Shown piece by piece: positions 1 to 19,260 of a stretch of DNA of 20,151 nt. Origin of the DNA: a virus. Taxonomy: Duplodnaviria; Heunggongvirae; Uroviricota; Caudoviricetes. How positions within the stretch are numbered: the stretch's first letter is position 1; the number at the start of each line of letters is the position of its first letter. The translations under genes were made by a program, and so were the position numbers. The stretch lies in IMG/VR virus record IMGVR_UViG_640753025_000004, positions 1-20,151 of that record. One strand, 5' to 3'. A model generated the notes under the pieces. The model was not told the DNA's origin and did not search any database. It saw only the letters and a list, made by a program, of their open reading frames with translations.

Positions 1-393
1 TCATATTACTGGATAATCATCATCATCCTTCCCTATCCGATTGATAACGAATGTCACTACCCCGACAACTGTAACATCATCCAGGGCCTCACCTTCCAAC
101 GCTTCACCGTCTCGTGTAATAAATGCCCGGCCCATAATTTTTGCAAAATCAGTGCCGCCGCCGTATTGAATTAAAACGGTATCTCCTTGCTTTGGTTTTA
201 CGAAGCAATCCACTACGGCATAGCCGGTTTCTGTTTGTACTATCCGAGTATTGGGGCCGGTACCGCAGAGTGAATCAACGGTCAGACGCCGTTCAACATA
301 GTCAGCAGCTGGCGACGGAAATCCCACGTTATAGCCCTCCGTTTGGGTTGTATAACTGGAACGTGAGCTCATCGCCTTCCTGCGTTGAGACAT
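1..393 (-). CDS. UmuD-like S24-family (LexA/UmuD-type) SOS protein; gene runs to the window edge with stop at 1-3
   Basis: Translation contains GFPSPAADYVE, identical to the segment around the UmuD Cys24-Gly25 cleavage site, at the same distance from the N-terminus. C-terminal DDVTVVGVVTFVINRI resembles the UmuD C-terminus (DTLDVFGVVIHVVK) and a GDTVLI block matches GDLLIV. The canonical SG-x-SM serine motif is not evident (region reads TETGYAV). Alternative start at Met8 (about 372) has a better SD (AGGAAGG). Confidence 0.65.
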   Translation of the reverse strand: MSQRRKAMSSRSSYTTQTEGYNVGFPSPAADYVERRLTVDSLCGTGPNTRIVQTETGYAVVDCFVKPKQGDTVLIQYGGGTDFAKIMGRAFITRDGEALEGEALDDVTVVGVVTFVINRIGKDDDDYPVI

Positions 394-402
394 CCCGGAA
401 TG

Positions 403-561
403 TCAGTGCTCTATCCACTGGTTAGCCTGGCGCGGTGACCATATCCAGTTAACTTTTGCGAGTTCCCGGATAAAACCGGACGTTGTCACGGTGCGACGGC
501 CATTAGGCTCAATGACAATTGCCTGACGCCAGGCTATTTCGATATCTGAGTTTCGCGGCAT
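403..561 (-). CDS. small hypothetical protein (52 aa), first gene of the SOS-box operon
   Basis: ATG at 561 preceded by a strong SD (GGGAGGTGA, about 6 nt spacing). The track ORF 403-606 extends upstream but the internal ATG with SD is the likelier start. Stop lies 9 nt before the UmuD-like start. No recognisable family. Confidence 0.4.
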   Translation of the reverse strand: MPRNSDIEIAWRQAIVIEPNGRRTVTTSGFIRELAKVNWIWSPRQANQWIEH

Positions 562-579
562 AACTTCACCTCCCGAAAA

Positions 580-599
580 TACTGTTTTTATATACAGTA
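580..599 (-). promoter_or_regulatory. LexA binding site (SOS box)
   Basis: TACTGTTTTTATATACAGTA fits the E. coli SOS box consensus TACTGT-(AT)4-ACAGTA with both CTGT/ACAG half-sites perfect. It lies about 18 nt upstream of the 561 start codon and contains a TATATA -10-like element. Confidence 0.65.
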
Positions 600-771
600 G
601 ATTCATTAAGAGATCTGATCAATACAGGTTCCAGCTATCAATCAGGAACACTGAGGAGGAAACCAGTCACCTTTTAGCCTCTGATATTGGTTTCACTTAG
701 TGATTATGTTGTCTATGTGCCAACTATGAACTATCTTTTCTCAAAACCTGCTACTGCAAAATGGATATAAG

Positions 772-897: not shown

Positions 898-1103
898 ATT
901 GGGATGGTATAGACCCAAATTCATGGTCATTGCCCCTCGACGTCGGAAGGTACTTACAGATCATCTTCGCTCTTAACCTATCACATCGGCACCTACTCCA
1001 TGATGTAACAGCTCAGACCAGAAATATCTGGAAGCTTTAGGCATATTCTTGGAAGATAGACGAGCGCAAAGACGCACACAGCAATGATGTTATGTAGTAT
1101 TTT

Positions 1104-1137
1104 CCCCTTGAGTGTGCCTGCTCAAGGGGGTTTTTAT
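1104..1137 (+). terminator. Rho-independent terminator-like hairpin
   Basis: CCCCTTGAG-TGTGCCTG-CTCAAGGGG stem-loop followed by GTTTTTAT. Confidence 0.5.
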
Positions 1138-1219: not shown

Positions 1220-1642
1220 TTAGTCCGGTATGTTTCTCGCGCTACTACTGCTTACGTTAACGTCTGGTAATGATCTAGCGGCGCGACGTAAAGCGGCGTT
1301 GAAAGCAATTATAGTGACCGGCCGGCATTGGTACTTCACACGGTTAGAATGGCTCTGAAATAAAAAAACATCTTCTGGATAGCGTTCTCTTCTACGAGCA
1401 ATGATCCCCTCCACTGGAGGGGTTGATTTAACACGTAGCTCCTTCAGGTGACCCTGTTTTCGTATCAGTATCAAGTCACCATCAATATCATCATATCGAA
1501 TACTCAGCAGCCTTCCAGCGCTTAAACCCGTGTGAAAAATTAACGCCCACAAGTCAGCCCATGTATCTGAGATGGAAACAAGATTGCTGTTAATAGTTAA
1601 AAATTGCTCAAAACTTATTGTTTTCTTACCGTTCACGAACAA
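1220..1642 (-). pseudogene. internal fragment of a tyrosine recombinase (phage-integrase/XerC-like)
   Basis: The segment TGLSAGRLLSIRYDDIDGDLILIRKQG and the following region align in pattern with the first half of the tyrosine-recombinase catalytic domain (first conserved Arg). The C-terminal H-x-x-R and Tyr region and the N-terminal domain are absent. ORF begins with TTG and contains no internal Met. Confidence 0.5.
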
Positions 1643-1719: not shown

Positions 1720-1932
1720 TCAAGTCGCCGGGAGGTACTTGTAGATTGTTTTCACGTCCACGCCTGTCACATCAGCCACCTGCTGCCGGGTAGCGCCGTT
1801 CTCCAGCATTCTGCGGCACCGCTCCACCACTTCTTCAGTCATTATCCGGCGGCGGCCGCCGACTCTCTCCTGCTCCATCGCTGCGGACCGACTCGGATGC
1901 ATTCGGCAAATTCTAGGCCGTGATTTTTCCAA
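1720..1932 (-). pseudogene. C-terminal remnant of a serine DNA invertase (Pin/Gin/Hin family), copy B
   Basis: GGRRRIMTEEVVERCRRMLENGATRQQVADVTGVDVKTIYKYLP parallels the Gin/Hin C-terminal HTH domain (GGRPPKLT...LYKKHP). The resolvase catalytic domain is missing; the ORF starts with TTG and overlaps the 3' end of the upstream 266-aa gene. Confidence 0.65.
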
Positions 1933-2722: not shown

Positions 2723-4786
2723 TCAGAAAACGTTAATACGAAAAGCGGGGAGCCAGTCGTAAAGAGTCACGGATGTGTCATACACCCATATGATTCCAGC
2801 GGAAGATCGAACACACCCTCTTGCACCAAGAGTCCGCCCGGAAGGTTTTACAGATGCGCCGCTCTGAAGTGGGTTTTCTGCTGTCGCATAGGAAACGCGC
2901 CCAAAACGTCCAGAGGGGGCGGTCGCCAGGTTAATCAGCACGCCCTTGCCGTCCGAGCTGATCGCGATGCTCGATATAGCAGGTGGAGCACCAGTCTCAT
3001 CCGTGTAGCTAAAGCCGTAATTGGCCAGACCGGAGGTGTTGATCGTAGTCGTGTCCAGCACCAGGTTCGTATACGCTGGGACATTGATTTGTATCTGCGT
3101 GGGTGAGTTCCACACGAAACTGGTCGGAACCATCCCTGACCAGCCGCTCGTAAACCACTCCTGGAGAAGCGCTCTCGCCACAGCTGCTCCGCGCCGGTTC
3201 TGGCCCGCACACGTCAAGTGCAGACCGTCTGAAATAAAATCGTACTGGTACAAACTATTGACCAGCCTGAATTGCTCTTTTCCGTGCAATCGCGTCGACG
3301 CCAGTCGCGCGTACTGGCCTGTAAATGCACCATGCCCGTCATTGACATACCCCAGCTGGGTAATGGCGATAATCGGCGGTTCGTTTTGACCCGTTCTTGC
3401 GATGATGTCGCTGGTGATTTGTCTCTGGTACTGCCTCATCCGTGATTCATACATTCCTTCTCGTAATCCTGACCAGTCCTCGTCGGACTCTCCCTGCATC
3501 CAGTCAACGCAGAGAACAATCGGCAGCCAGCCGCGTGCTTTACAGGCCGTTACGCAGTCTTCGATTGAATCGAGCAGATACTGATATACCTGGTTACCCC
3601 GTTTCTGGTACTCGTAAGCCTGACCAGACTGCGCACATACGATTGATAGCGTGCGCGGCATGATTCCGGTAGCTGCAGCCATATCGCGAATGAAGGTGTT
3701 CGCGAGGCCGCTTGCGGCCGTTTCTTTATCTGTCCCACTTACTGCCTCAACCAGTGGCACCAGAGTAGTGCTGCGTGTCCCTGTACGCCTAACCCCGCCG
3801 CTGAGCATGAAAGCGTTATCAGGATATATCGGCGTTGCTGCGACAATGGTTTGATCGGCGTCAGGACAATATCCTCGAGCGTTGGATTGCCCAGCAGTCA
3901 CAAAGATAAAACATACAGGCACTGTCTCTGAGTAGGGGTACACAGTAGACCCTGACAAATGAAGTCCATACTCAGGGAGCTGGTTGGCATCATCGTCGCC
4001 ACCACCACCGCCATTTCCGTTATTAACAGCTACCAGGCCACCGTCTGAGTAAATCCAGTGCTTCCCACCAACCGTATAAGCTTCAACGATCTGGTTTGTG
4101 GTTGAATCAACCGTCATCCGCCACACTTTTTCACCGCCAATAAACTGCGGTATAGAACCCTCCCGGCCCAGCGCATAGAGTTCGGATTCTTGTTGGGTTA
4201 AAAGTTCGTAATATTTTCCGTCAGGACCGATTTGAATTAATCTGCCGCTTGTATTTAAAAATGGAGCCACGCGGGAAGTCTCCGGATCATATGCTGCCAG
4301 GGTCACGCTGTCTGGCGATACCTGGTATGCGTAGTCGTCACGAACCATCCGCCGTCCGGTTGGCTGCAGCGTTCCAGCGAGGTTGATATACTCATCGGCC
4401 AGAGAGCTTCCGTCCTGACTGCGGACATAGGTTGTTGAACCTGCCGGAATATTCGCAATATCCGCCTGCGCCGCCGCCAGCGTCATGTACTGCCGGCTGA
4501 GAGGGATCAGGTTTTGGCGGGCTTCATCAATAACAGCGTCGGTAGCAGCTGCCATTTTTTTAGTAGCCCCAATTATCGTATCCTGGGCGTTACCAAAACG
4601 ATCTATAAAAGTATCGCTTTCGCTGTTCAGGAAATCATCGTACGCCAGGGCGTTATCATTCAGATCCTTCATGCTATTTGAAGGTCTTGGATTGCCGGTA
4701 TTATATCTTTTGTCCATACCTGTTCCTGTCTTCATCTTTTCAATGAAGCAATTAAGATTGACGCCCCGCCCCTTCAGGGCTAACAT
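2723..4786 (-). CDS. tailspike-like protein with a SASA/SGNH-type carbohydrate O-acetylesterase domain
   Basis: Long ORF with a central FIFVTAGQSNARGY motif, the GQSN(M)xG nucleophile motif of sialate-O-acetylesterase/DUF303-type esterases (as in prophage NanS-p and esterase tailspikes). A Gly-rich linker precedes it and a C-terminal beta-rich region follows. The true start is probably an internal ATG (about 4735 or 4717, the latter with an AGGA SD). Confidence 0.6.
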   Translation of the reverse strand: MLALKGRGVNLNCFIEKMKTGTGMDKRYNTGNPRPSNSMKDLNDNALAYDDFLNSESDTFIDRFGNAQDTIIGATKKMAAATDAVIDEARQNLIPLSRQYMTLAAAQADIANIPAGSTTYVRSQDGSSLADEYINLAGTLQPTGRRMVRDDYAYQVSPDSVTLAAYDPETSRVAPFLNTSGRLIQIGPDGKYYELLTQQESELYALGREGSIPQFIGGEKVWRMTVDSTTNQIVEAYTVGGKHWIYSDGGLVAVNNGNGGGGGDDDANQLPEYGLHLSGSTVYPYSETVPVCFIFVTAGQSNARGYCPDADQTIVAATPIYPDNAFMLSGGVRRTGTRSTTLVPLVEAVSGTDKETAASGLANTFIRDMAAATGIMPRTLSIVCAQSGQAYEYQKRGNQVYQYLLDSIEDCVTACKARGWLPIVLCVDWMQGESDEDWSGLREGMYESRMRQYQRQITSDIIARTGQNEPPIIAITQLGYVNDGHGAFTGQYARLASTRLHGKEQFRLVNSLYQYDFISDGLHLTCAGQNRRGAAVARALLQEWFTSGWSGMVPTSFVWNSPTQIQINVPAYTNLVLDTTTINTSGLANYGFSYTDETGAPPAISSIAISSDGKGVLINLATAPSGRFGRVSYATAENPLQSGASVKPSGRTLGARGCVRSSAGIIWVYDTSVTLYDWLPAFRINVF
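4757..4785 (+). promoter_or_regulatory. candidate sigma70 promoter for the moron operon
   Basis: TTGACG-N17-TAACAT just upstream of the HTH gene, in the divergent intergenic region. Confidence 0.3.
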
Positions 4787-4794
4787 CGCCTTAC

Positions 4795-5082
4795 GTGTTT
4801 AAACGGTTAAATAAGAGAATGATTTTAATAAATAAATACACCCCTCCAACGCAGGAAGATTTAGCCAGACTGAAATCCGCACTAAATTACTCCGGAAACC
4901 AAATGGCAGGGCTCGCAGGTGTAGCCAGCGATAGCCAATGGCGGAAATACACTGGCGGAGAGAGCCCCAGGGTAATGTCAAGACACATACTGTTTTATAT
5001 TGCAGCTCAGCTTGTTCTGTCTGATGAGCAACTTAACAATGTAATAAATAAAATGCGCGATATTGGCGCGGAGATAAAATAA
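4795..5082 (+). CDS. small HTH (Cro/XRE-like) protein, first gene of the moron
   Basis: The segment TQEDLARLKSALNYSGNQMAGLAGVASDSQWRKYTGGE has an HTH-like pattern. Track start is GTG; first ATG is at 4819. Stop overlaps the acyltransferase start (TAATG). AT-rich. Confidence 0.45.
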   Translation: MFKRLNKRMILINKYTPPTQEDLARLKSALNYSGNQMAGLAGVASDSQWRKYTGGESPRVMSRHILFYIAAQLVLSDEQLNNVINKMRDIGAEIK

Positions 5083-6173
5083 TGCTTGGCCTAATAAGGT
5101 TTTTTTTGGCATCGTGCGTCATTGCTTTTCACTTAACGGCTCGCATACCTGCACTTGGCAACTTTGCAGTGAATTGCTTCTATGTTATTAGTGGTTTTTT
5201 AATAACATACATTTTGCATGAAACATACAAGTTCAACTTCTCTATGTTTTGGAAAAATAGAATACTGAGGTTATTCCCGGCATATATATTTTTTCTCGTC
5301 ATGGGCTTTCTTATTATAAAATTAATTCCATCCGCAAAGGAATTCCACTCAAACTGGACAGGCAATTTCTTACCTGGAGATTTATTAGGAAACCTCTTAA
5401 TCTTCCCCTGGGCTTTCCTTTCTGATAATGCTGTAGCAAATCCATTCGGTGCCTTTTCATCCATTTATCACTTTGCTATTGATGGTAATAGATTCAGAAT
5501 AGTCACATCATCATGGTCAGTGGGTGTTGAGATAACATGTTATTTTTTATTGTGGCTTTTCATAGCCCGAAATAAATTTACAGCCATTACGTCGATTCTG
5601 CTTTCACTGCTTTATCATGCTTACGTATATGTAGTACACCATTCTTTTGATATGGCGTATTTCCCATTCCTTGCTGCAACACTTCCTTTTAGCATGGGTT
5701 CTCTGGGTTATTTTGCCCATAGAAAGTTCAAAGCTATGTATCTTTCTCCACACAAAGCTTTTTTAATAACATTTATTTGCATCGGGATTTTTATTACCAA
5801 TTGGCATTTATATACAATTAATCCATTAGGTCAGTACAACATAATACTTTACTACACCAATAATGTAATAGCATTGTTTACAACCCTGGTATTATTAAAA
5901 ATAAAGACAAACATACATCTTGAGAAAATACTCAAGTGGTTTGGTGACCTGGCCTATCCAATTTTTCTTTGTCAATATTTTGGTGGATTTCTAGCATGGC
6001 TTGCTATTGGTGGTGAAAATCGTGGCTTATCCATCTTTTTATTAGGCTACCCAATATCAATTGCACTTGGGATCGTTTGTGTAATATTAATAGACAAGCC
6101 ACTAATTAAAATTAGAGCAAAAATAAGGGCGGACGCTCAAAGCAAAAATAATCAGGAAAACTCTTCAAGGTAA
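5082..6173 (+). CDS. acyltransferase-3 family integral membrane O-acyltransferase (OafA/Oac-like)
   Basis: Multi-TM protein with family-typical N-terminal motifs (FHLTAR, FYVISGFLITY, WKNRILRLFPAY). Markedly AT-rich relative to flanking phage genes and on the opposite strand. Confidence 0.8.
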   Translation: MLGLIRFFLASCVIAFHLTARIPALGNFAVNCFYVISGFLITYILHETYKFNFSMFWKNRILRLFPAYIFFLVMGFLIIKLIPSAKEFHSNWTGNFLPGDLLGNLLIFPWAFLSDNAVANPFGAFSSIYHFAIDGNRFRIVTSSWSVGVEITCYFLLWLFIARNKFTAITSILLSLLYHAYVYVVHHSFDMAYFPFLAATLPFSMGSLGYFAHRKFKAMYLSPHKAFLITFICIGIFITNWHLYTINPLGQYNIILYYTNNVIALFTTLVLLKIKTNIHLEKILKWFGDLAYPIFLCQYFGGFLAWLAIGGENRGLSIFLLGYPISIALGIVCVILIDKPLIKIRAKIRADAQSKNNQENSSR

Positions 6174-19170: not shown

Positions 19171-19260
19171 TGGCGGAGAGAGGGGGATTTGAACCCCCGG
19201 TAGAGTTGCCCCTACTCCGGTTTTCGAGACCGGTCCGTTCAGCCGCTCCGGCATCTCTCC
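19171..19260 (-). tRNA. serU: tRNA-Ser, anticodon CGA
   Basis: Reverse complement reads GGAGAGATGCCGGAGCGGCTGAACGGACCGGTCTCGAAAACCGGAGTAGGGGCAACTCTACCGGGGGTTCAAATCCCCCTCTCTCCGCCA, a class II tRNA with long variable arm, CGA anticodon and encoded CCA. Its 3' end faces the integrase fragment. Confidence 0.9.

Follow-up and report, generated by a model that had tools for sequence, protein, structure and literature searches.

Why would a phage place, behind an SOS promoter, a gene that resembles one subunit of a mutagenic polymerase and leave out the polymerase itself? The question is raised by the left end of the window analysed here, a stretch of 20,151 nucleotides (nt) that spans positions 1 to 20,151 of the virus record IMGVR_UViG_640753025_000004 and is 100% identical to positions 2062900-2083050 of the Escherichia coli HS chromosome (NC_009800.1). 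The principal SOS mutator of enterobacteria is DNA polymerase V (Pol V), and it is the slow, RecA*-dependent cleavage of UmuD that sets the time of its activation. The original prediction for this locus, made from the window alone, had been an SOS-controlled operon of a small gene and a UmuD-like gene whose product lacks the catalytic serine, with a umuC-like gene expected beyond the left edge. In our analysis, positions 1-642 on the minus strand are best explained as a terminal phage 'moron' comprising a LexA-repressed promoter of the umuDC type and two coupled genes, but no polymerase subunit, and sequence comparison indicates that this moron derives from a umuDC-type operon. Its parts, in the direction of transcription, are the following.

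635-642, minus strand: octamer ATTGATAG, 12 nt upstream of the -35 hexamer
617-622, minus strand: -35-like hexamer TTGATC, 17 nt upstream of TACTGT
580-599, minus strand: LexA (SOS) box TACTGTTTTTATATACAGTA, with the coding-strand sequence TACTGTATATAAAAACAGTA; the left half of the box probably serves as the -10 region as well
567-574, minus strand: Shine-Dalgarno sequence GGGAGGTG of the small gene, upstream of the ATG at 561
403-561, minus strand: 5′ part of the small gene, 52 codons plus TGA, a truncated member of the winged-helix family phrog_3893
329-402, minus strand: out-of-frame 3′ remnant of the small gene, ending in FRDVSTQEGDELTFQLYNPNGGL and its original stop codon TAA at 329-331
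335-340, minus strand: Shine-Dalgarno sequence GGAGGG of the UmuD′-like gene, inside the NGG codons of the small gene
1-327, minus strand: UmuD′-like gene with the start codon GTG at 325-327, a product of 108 amino acids (aa) running from M-GFPSPAADYVE to DDYPVI, and the stop codon TGA at 1-3

The link to the SOS response is made by the control region. As a TACTG-N10-CAGTA palindrome the LexA box is perfect, and E. coli HS has the identical operator at its own umuDC operon. Although it is the sole match with at most one mismatch in the 20-kb window, 0.24 such matches are expected per window by chance, so a single match is by itself weak evidence and the case is carried by positional conservation: a CTG-N10-CAG box lies 33-41 nt 5′ of the small-gene start (63 nt in two Citrobacter loci) in 42 of 47 homologous loci, which come from phages and 40 bacterial species. 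TTGAT is invariant in an alignment of 13 promoters that includes the host umuDC promoter, and it is common across the 47 loci. The octamer ATTGATAG (window 635-642; L056 325-332) is found, equally spaced from the -35 hexamer, in the umuDC promoter of E. coli HS and in nine other small-gene promoters, with carriers in Raoultella, Dryocola, Franconibacter, Siccibacter and phages of E. coli. We know of no regulator for it; it might act as an UP-like element or as a binding site. The whole layout, namely ATTGATAG, 12 nt, TTGATC, 17 nt, the box, about 20 nt and the ATG, is collinear with the umuDC promoter. A simple consensus promoter scan made no call here for want of a matching -10 element, and the promoter assignment is based on conservation and on this collinearity. 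Because the operator is identical and the control region collinear, the module bears a umuDC-type SOS promoter, and by its operator it would belong to the LexA regulon. The box and the SOS control that had been proposed for this locus are thereby borne out as far as sequence reaches; that LexA binds here in vivo is what we infer from them, as we do the partnership with UmuC or RecA and the role of the first gene that are set out below.

Downstream of this promoter, the second gene is the intact one. In 27 species loci its start codon stands immediately 5′ of GFPSPA, at -1 to +2 nt from the stop codon of the small gene, and the GGAGGG Shine-Dalgarno sequence is invariant in an alignment with relatives, a configuration that points to translational coupling of the two genes in intact copies. 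Two longer versions have been called in the window: RefSeq starts at the ATG at 370-372 (123 aa; window 1-372 corresponds to 6001-6372 of L004, the E. coli HS record including its flank), and the longest open reading frame (ORF) starts at the ATG at 391-393 (130 aa). The upstream ATG is missing in phage 733R5 and the upstream region is unrelated in phage P7641; since the start directly before GFPSPA is kept among the relatives and the upstream starts are not, the conserved product is the one of 108 aa. The additional N-terminal residues of the 123- and 130-aa calls are the 3′ end of the small gene read out of frame, and in intact alleles the RefSeq start would make the two coding sequences overlap by 44 nt. 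The 130-aa length and the 9-nt gap between the two genes, as first described, are consequently products of a frameshift, to which we return; in intact relatives the stop of the first gene adjoins or overlaps the start before GFPSPA.

The UmuD-like protein with its GFPSPAADYVE motif is indeed encoded on the minus strand. Its 130-aa ORF is matched, from residue 23 on, by the PHROG family 'UmuD-like protein', its DNA homology to umuD begins exactly at codon 25, and it shares the S24 beta-fold of the C-terminal domains of LexA and UmuD′. UmuD is cleaved between Cys24 and Gly25 by the dyad S60/K97 (PMC9926225). The 108-aa product would thus begin at the very residue that cleavage exposes in UmuD, and its start equals the N-terminus of processed UmuD′. 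LexA-controlled UmuD′ mimics of this kind, mostly in translational coupling with a conserved winged-helix protein, occur in temperate phages whose hosts are E. coli, Klebsiella, Enterobacter, Erwinia and Pantoea.

The absence of the catalytic serine not only withstood closer alignment but holds more strongly than it had been stated. In phmmer comparisons with PDB sequences, Ser60 of UmuD is aligned to Ala37 of the window protein, and in a 19-sequence alignment of UmuD, P1 HumD, N15 gp26 and both subfamilies of UmuD′-like proteins an 11-residue deletion removes the whole Ser60 loop. The earlier view that TGYAV replaces the SG-x-SM motif is therefore superseded: the loop has been deleted outright, and GYAVVD…QGDTV of the window protein stands opposite GDLLIVD…HGDIV of UmuD. 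The column of Lys97 holds A, G or V, with K or R one position later. Within the short subfamily, a 35-sequence alignment contains no invariant Ser other than that of GFPSPA and no invariant Lys. The Ser nucleophile and the Lys general base of the self-cleaving S24 peptidases (UmuD, LexA, CI) are both lacking, and by all alignments the protein would be incapable of self-cleavage. This had been presented as an anomaly, but the protein, like P1 HumD, begins at the post-cleavage N-terminus, so that cleavage is unneeded. The arm itself is invariant (GFPSPAxDY), and we infer from this that it is the functionally constrained epitope.

A umuC gene does not follow. The operon had been thought to run off the left edge of the window, but its last stop codon occupies positions 1-3, and the sequence to the left continues with about 195 nt, a partial 3′ copy of tRNA-Ser (L004 5669-5730) and then the host genes yodB and zinT; no umuC was found in this E. 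coli HS flank. A tblastn search with a UmuC query was likewise negative for the DNA behind the UmuD′-like gene at all 27 species loci, and in the phage relatives its place is taken by the phage attachment site attP and the integrase gene, which disposes of the expectation of a polymerase gene further left. The window itself covers a defective lambdoid prophage of about 19 kb that has kept the genes from terminase through baseplate as well as tail fibre genes, whereas its integrase is truncated and its early, immunity, replication and lysis genes are gone. The remnant is bracketed on the right by an intact tRNA-Ser(cga) (window 19171-19260) and on the left by the partial copy, which RefSeq labels 'tRNA-OTHER' and ARAGORN does not call. 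Together these two copies are the attachment (att) sites of the remnant, and the SOS module lies at its very end, adjoining one of them.

The first gene of the module is in a different state. Its strong Shine-Dalgarno sequence and the 52-aa ORF are present as described, and across homologous loci the Shine-Dalgarno position is occupied by a G-rich, mostly GGAGG-like stretch; the ORF is, however, not the functional gene it was taken for. It covers profile positions 1-52 of 79 of phrog_3893, and comparison with E. coli SCU-308 (98% identity) and the phages 733R5 and P7641 reveals a 7-nt deletion in the HS allele, whose junction is spanned by the TGA at 403-405. The segment lost from the 79-aa product, YVTTFRDVSTQEG…FNPNGGL, is the most conserved third of the family, and the C-terminal signature of full-length members (TTFRDVSxxEG…NPNGG) is accordingly absent from the window copy. 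What remains of the 3′ end falls within a separate ORF at 329-418, and RefSeq independently annotates 329-561 (L004 6329-6561) as a frameshifted pseudogene. On this sequence evidence the 52-aa ORF is a pseudogene in E. coli HS. Sixteen E. coli records hold the deleted allele with 100% identity; other strains have the intact gene, whose carriers include E. coli SCU-308 and Klebsiella phage Kp4882-3.

Elsewhere, the small gene encodes a family of its own. A word-indexed search yielded 118 clusters, spread over the Enterobacterales, and a full scan of 1.84 billion proteins with a hidden Markov model yielded 176 representatives, nearly all of about 79 aa. The family is under purifying selection, with a ratio of non-synonymous to synonymous substitution rates (dN/dS) of 0.05-0.2, and it has no match in Pfam, NCBIfam, PADLOC or Rfam. 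The AlphaFold2 model has the order H-E-H-H-E-E at a mean confidence (pLDDT) of 89 and predicts a winged helix, the structural neighbours of which are merely generic. RefSeq names the 79-aa family 'DNA polymerase V', a name for which we found no backing by homology; together with the upstream start given to the UmuD′-like gene, it looks like a widely propagated annotation error. Literature searches with the box sequence, the accessions, HumD, and UmuD-like together with DinI brought up no study of the small protein, and in the literature that could be searched neither the winged-helix family nor its systematic link to Pol V genes seems to have been described.

Several other origins of the small protein were considered and rejected. 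It could have been one half of a split UmuD, given that its C-terminus (…TFQLYNPNGGL) recalls the UmuD arm (…TFPLFSDLVQC) at the cleavage site, but the DNA homology to umuD has nothing alignable upstream of codon 25, this C-terminal motif is strand β3 of the predicted winged helix, and members of the HK140 and P7641 types are without the motif. Homology to the N-terminal domain of LexA or to DinI was dismissed at hhalign probabilities of 0.1-0.15% (DinI 0.1%). Descent from a fused ancestor was likewise discarded, as each of the few fusions occurs once only, and P0349, at least, results from out-of-frame read-through. Among the predicted fusions are those of the small protein with a UmuD′-like domain (178 and 148 aa) or with the UmuC N-terminus (a 122-aa fragment), in P0316, P0263 and P0289, which may be genuine or may be artefacts of assembly or frameshifting.

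The company the small gene keeps is consistent. In 34 of 40 species loci it is accompanied by a UmuD′-like, umuC or umuDC gene. Its description as a gene outside canonical umuDC is supported. A UmuD′-like gene of either subfamily lies directly downstream in 27 loci, a umuC gene in one, and a canonical umuDC operon on the same strand 0.5-3.2 kb downstream in six; in the remaining six, the 8 kb downstream are free of umu genes. The single umuC case is a prophage end of Pantoea allii (L030 8001-9502; NZ_CP193910.1), where, after tail-fibre genes, the small gene is followed by a full-length umuC (420 aa, with IMS domains) at a 1-nt overlap of stop and start and with no umuD-type gene in between. 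The ORF just after this umuC resembles a translated tRNA gene, as judged by reading alone and without a tRNA finder. The umuDC-associated loci (L029, L031, L034, L035, L038 and L047), in which the small gene has a LexA box, belong to Pantoea and Erwinia, L047 being a plasmid record; a distinct LexA box before umuD was deduced from an ORF translation in L031 only, and in L038 no phage genes were found among the few nearby ORFs examined. A dinI gene often adjoins the small gene divergently, as in HK140, HK225, Eeyore and Citrobacter prophages. In HK225 the small gene stands behind a LexA box without humD, while in P1 and N15 a LexA box precedes humD and the small gene is missing, so that the two genes are separable.

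Taken together, we propose the following course of events. DNA damage would lead to LexA cleavage and thereby to derepression of the promoter, which would supply a ready-made UmuD′-like protein that bypasses RecA*-dependent processing. By analogy with P1 HumD, this protein might pair with the UmuC and RecA of the host and alter translesion synthesis or the timing of the SOS response for the benefit of the phage. Given that its winged-helix partner is linked in the genomes to umuD′-like, umuC or umuDC genes, this partner, too, most probably works in the Pol V/SOS pathway. We give somewhat better than even odds to the combined reading in which the 108-aa protein, uncleaved, engages UmuC and/or RecA of the host once LexA repression is lifted and the winged-helix protein serves the same pathway. 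More specifically, the 79-aa protein might be a hitherto unrecognised, SOS-controlled accessory factor or regulator of Pol V that associates physically with UmuD′-type proteins and/or UmuC and has the 105-108-aa mimic as its dedicated partner, a suggestion that we make only tentatively. If the proposal is correct, it would describe a phage-borne two-protein device that reprograms host translesion synthesis and dispenses with RecA*-dependent processing; and should UmuC or RecA be targets of the pair, lysogens could show altered damage-induced mutagenesis, with consequences for how antibiotic resistance evolves in hosts of clinical importance.

Several observations weigh against this proposal. 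The UmuD core contacts the RecA filament groove through Y52, F94, D91 and E93 (PMC9926225), and F26 and P29 of the arm touch RecA as well. In the window protein the four core positions are occupied by R, T, G and G, so that its interaction with RecA* may differ from that of UmuD or be lost. The UmuD′-like protein has no Pfam match at E <= 1, including Peptidase_S24, and it scores 37 bits against the NCBIfam HumD model NF051876, the cut-off of which is 120, with only residues 1-27 matching. By its sequences and model, the small protein is near-neutral in charge and its wing is acidic, which is atypical of a DNA-binding winged helix. Finally, in the HS copy the first gene is dead and the prophage is a remnant, and the module may be partly functional there or may simply not yet have decayed.

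This last point leads to the alternative that survives best, although we consider it unlikely: the whole of positions 1-642 could be decaying along with the HS prophage, the intact UmuD′-like ORF merely having escaped mutation so far. The frameshift in the first gene, the loss of the early, immunity and lysis genes and the truncated integrase would all fit, and the 16 E. coli records with an identical deleted allele would accord with clonal spread in recent times. Yet the promoter, LexA box, Shine-Dalgarno sequence and 108-aa ORF are intact, the latter with two synonymous changes and one non-synonymous change relative to SCU-308, and decay would concern the HS copy alone and have no bearing on the function of the family.

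It is rather less probable that the protein is a decoy, that is, a dead UmuD′ mimic that heterodimerises with host UmuD or UmuD′ or sequesters UmuC and so dampens Pol V or the UmuD checkpoint. The catalytic loop and the four RecA-groove residues are gone while the GFPSPA arm is strictly kept, the mimic lacks some 20 residues relative to HumD and differs from it in the C-terminal half, and a cognate umuC is never present after the UmuD′-like gene in the 27 loci, all of which a decoy would account for; against it, the related HumD class is annotated as acting positively, complementation of E. coli UmuD′ being annotated for P1 HumD only.

The least probable of the alternatives is an antirepressor module, in which the small winged-helix protein would bind and inactivate the prophage repressor upon SOS induction and the UmuD′-like protein would modulate RecA filaments in the manner of DinI. 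This has a published precedent in the Gifsy-type operons, where the small LexA-controlled antirepressors GfoA and GftA are co-transcribed with DinI, a RecA-filament-binding protein (PMC3121763). It would also suit the occurrence of the small gene mainly in temperate phages beside attP, its divergent arrangement to dinI and its solitary position behind a LexA box in HK225, but it fares poorly because the CI repressor of 733R5, the one carrier examined, has a helix-turn-helix and an intact Peptidase_S24 domain (3.2e-22) and therefore needs no antirepressor, because the small gene also occurs beside umuDC at a locus whose examined surroundings showed no phage gene (L038) and, at L030, immediately upstream of umuC, and because a tblastn search of 50,697 phage records gave no match in Gifsy or 186.

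Our preferred reading of a SOS-controlled module acting on Pol V concerns the outermost 642 nt, and the DNA next to it holds a number of further features. Across positions 600-1300 nothing was matched from Pfam, NCBIfam, PADLOC or Rfam. The plus strand holds, some 170 nt away from the oppositely oriented SOS promoter, a 41-aa ORF (772-897) whose core (MSQTDLLIVVFTLGILAFGYSIWFISNRILCSIFHRLTKNI) is strongly hydrophobic and which has no match in Pfam, PADLOC or Rfam; it could encode a small membrane peptide. It is followed at 1103-1130 (plus strand) by a strong terminator-like hairpin with a 12-bp stem and a T-run, at 1220-1642 (minus strand) by a 140-aa ORF without a family, at the position of which 733R5 has a 138-aa hypothetical gene, and at 1720-1932 (minus strand) by the remnant of a DNA-invertase HTH_7 domain of the type found in invertible tail-fibre segments. 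The gene at 2723-4786 (minus strand) encodes a tail spike or fibre protein with a sialate O-acetylesterase (SASA/SGNH) domain and adjoins a gene for an Acyl_transf_3 acyltransferase at 5082-6173 (plus strand), and it is plausible that the two form a receptor- or O-antigen-modifying pair. In phage 733R5 an annotated retron-type reverse transcriptase (L007 4333-5817) occupies the same moron region, between the tail genes and the SOS module.

Set beside known systems, the module shares with antirepressor operons (dinI-gfoA/gftA-irsA of Gifsy, tum of 186 and antC of N15) a small SOS-controlled phage protein next to a protein that interacts, or may interact, with RecA filaments, and it differs from them in that no sequence relationship could be detected, the carrier 733R5 has a cleavable CI, and umuC and umuDC are further genes to which the small gene is tied. 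The impCAB operon of plasmid TP110 has a small gene, impC, upstream of its UmuD and UmuC homologues, and ImpC is DinI-like. Here, too, a small extra cistron comes first behind a LexA box and ahead of a UmuD-family gene, but the small protein of the window is predicted to be a winged helix instead of a DinI-like protein, and no UmuC homologue follows. With the chromosomal umuDC operon of E. coli the window shares the LexA operator, the collinear promoter, homology from UmuD codon 25 onwards and the fold; it departs from it by having a winged-helix gene as the first cistron and by lacking the 24-residue cleavable arm, Ser60/Lys97 and the umuC gene that lies directly downstream of the umuD-family gene in canonical operons.

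The closest counterpart is the HumD class (P1 HumD, N15 gp26, phiKO2 gp23 and HK140 gp28), which consists of stand-alone, LexA-controlled UmuD′ homologues of temperate phages. The window protein and HumD have in common the M-GFPSPA start, the upstream LexA box and a position without umuC behind them, and HumD-type genes usually lie beside attP or at a genome end, as does the module described here. Members of the class measure 125-129 aa (P1, N15 and HK140; HumD itself 129 aa) in comparison to 108 aa, they retain S or T at position 60 and Lys97 (RIKRY), both of which the window protein has lost, and P1 and N15, unlike the window, have no small gene between the LexA box and humD. The identity between the window protein and HumD amounts to about 30% and is mostly confined to the first 25 residues, the C-terminal halves being different. 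By these comparisons, the UmuD′ mimic of the window represents a shorter, dyad-less variant of the HumD type.
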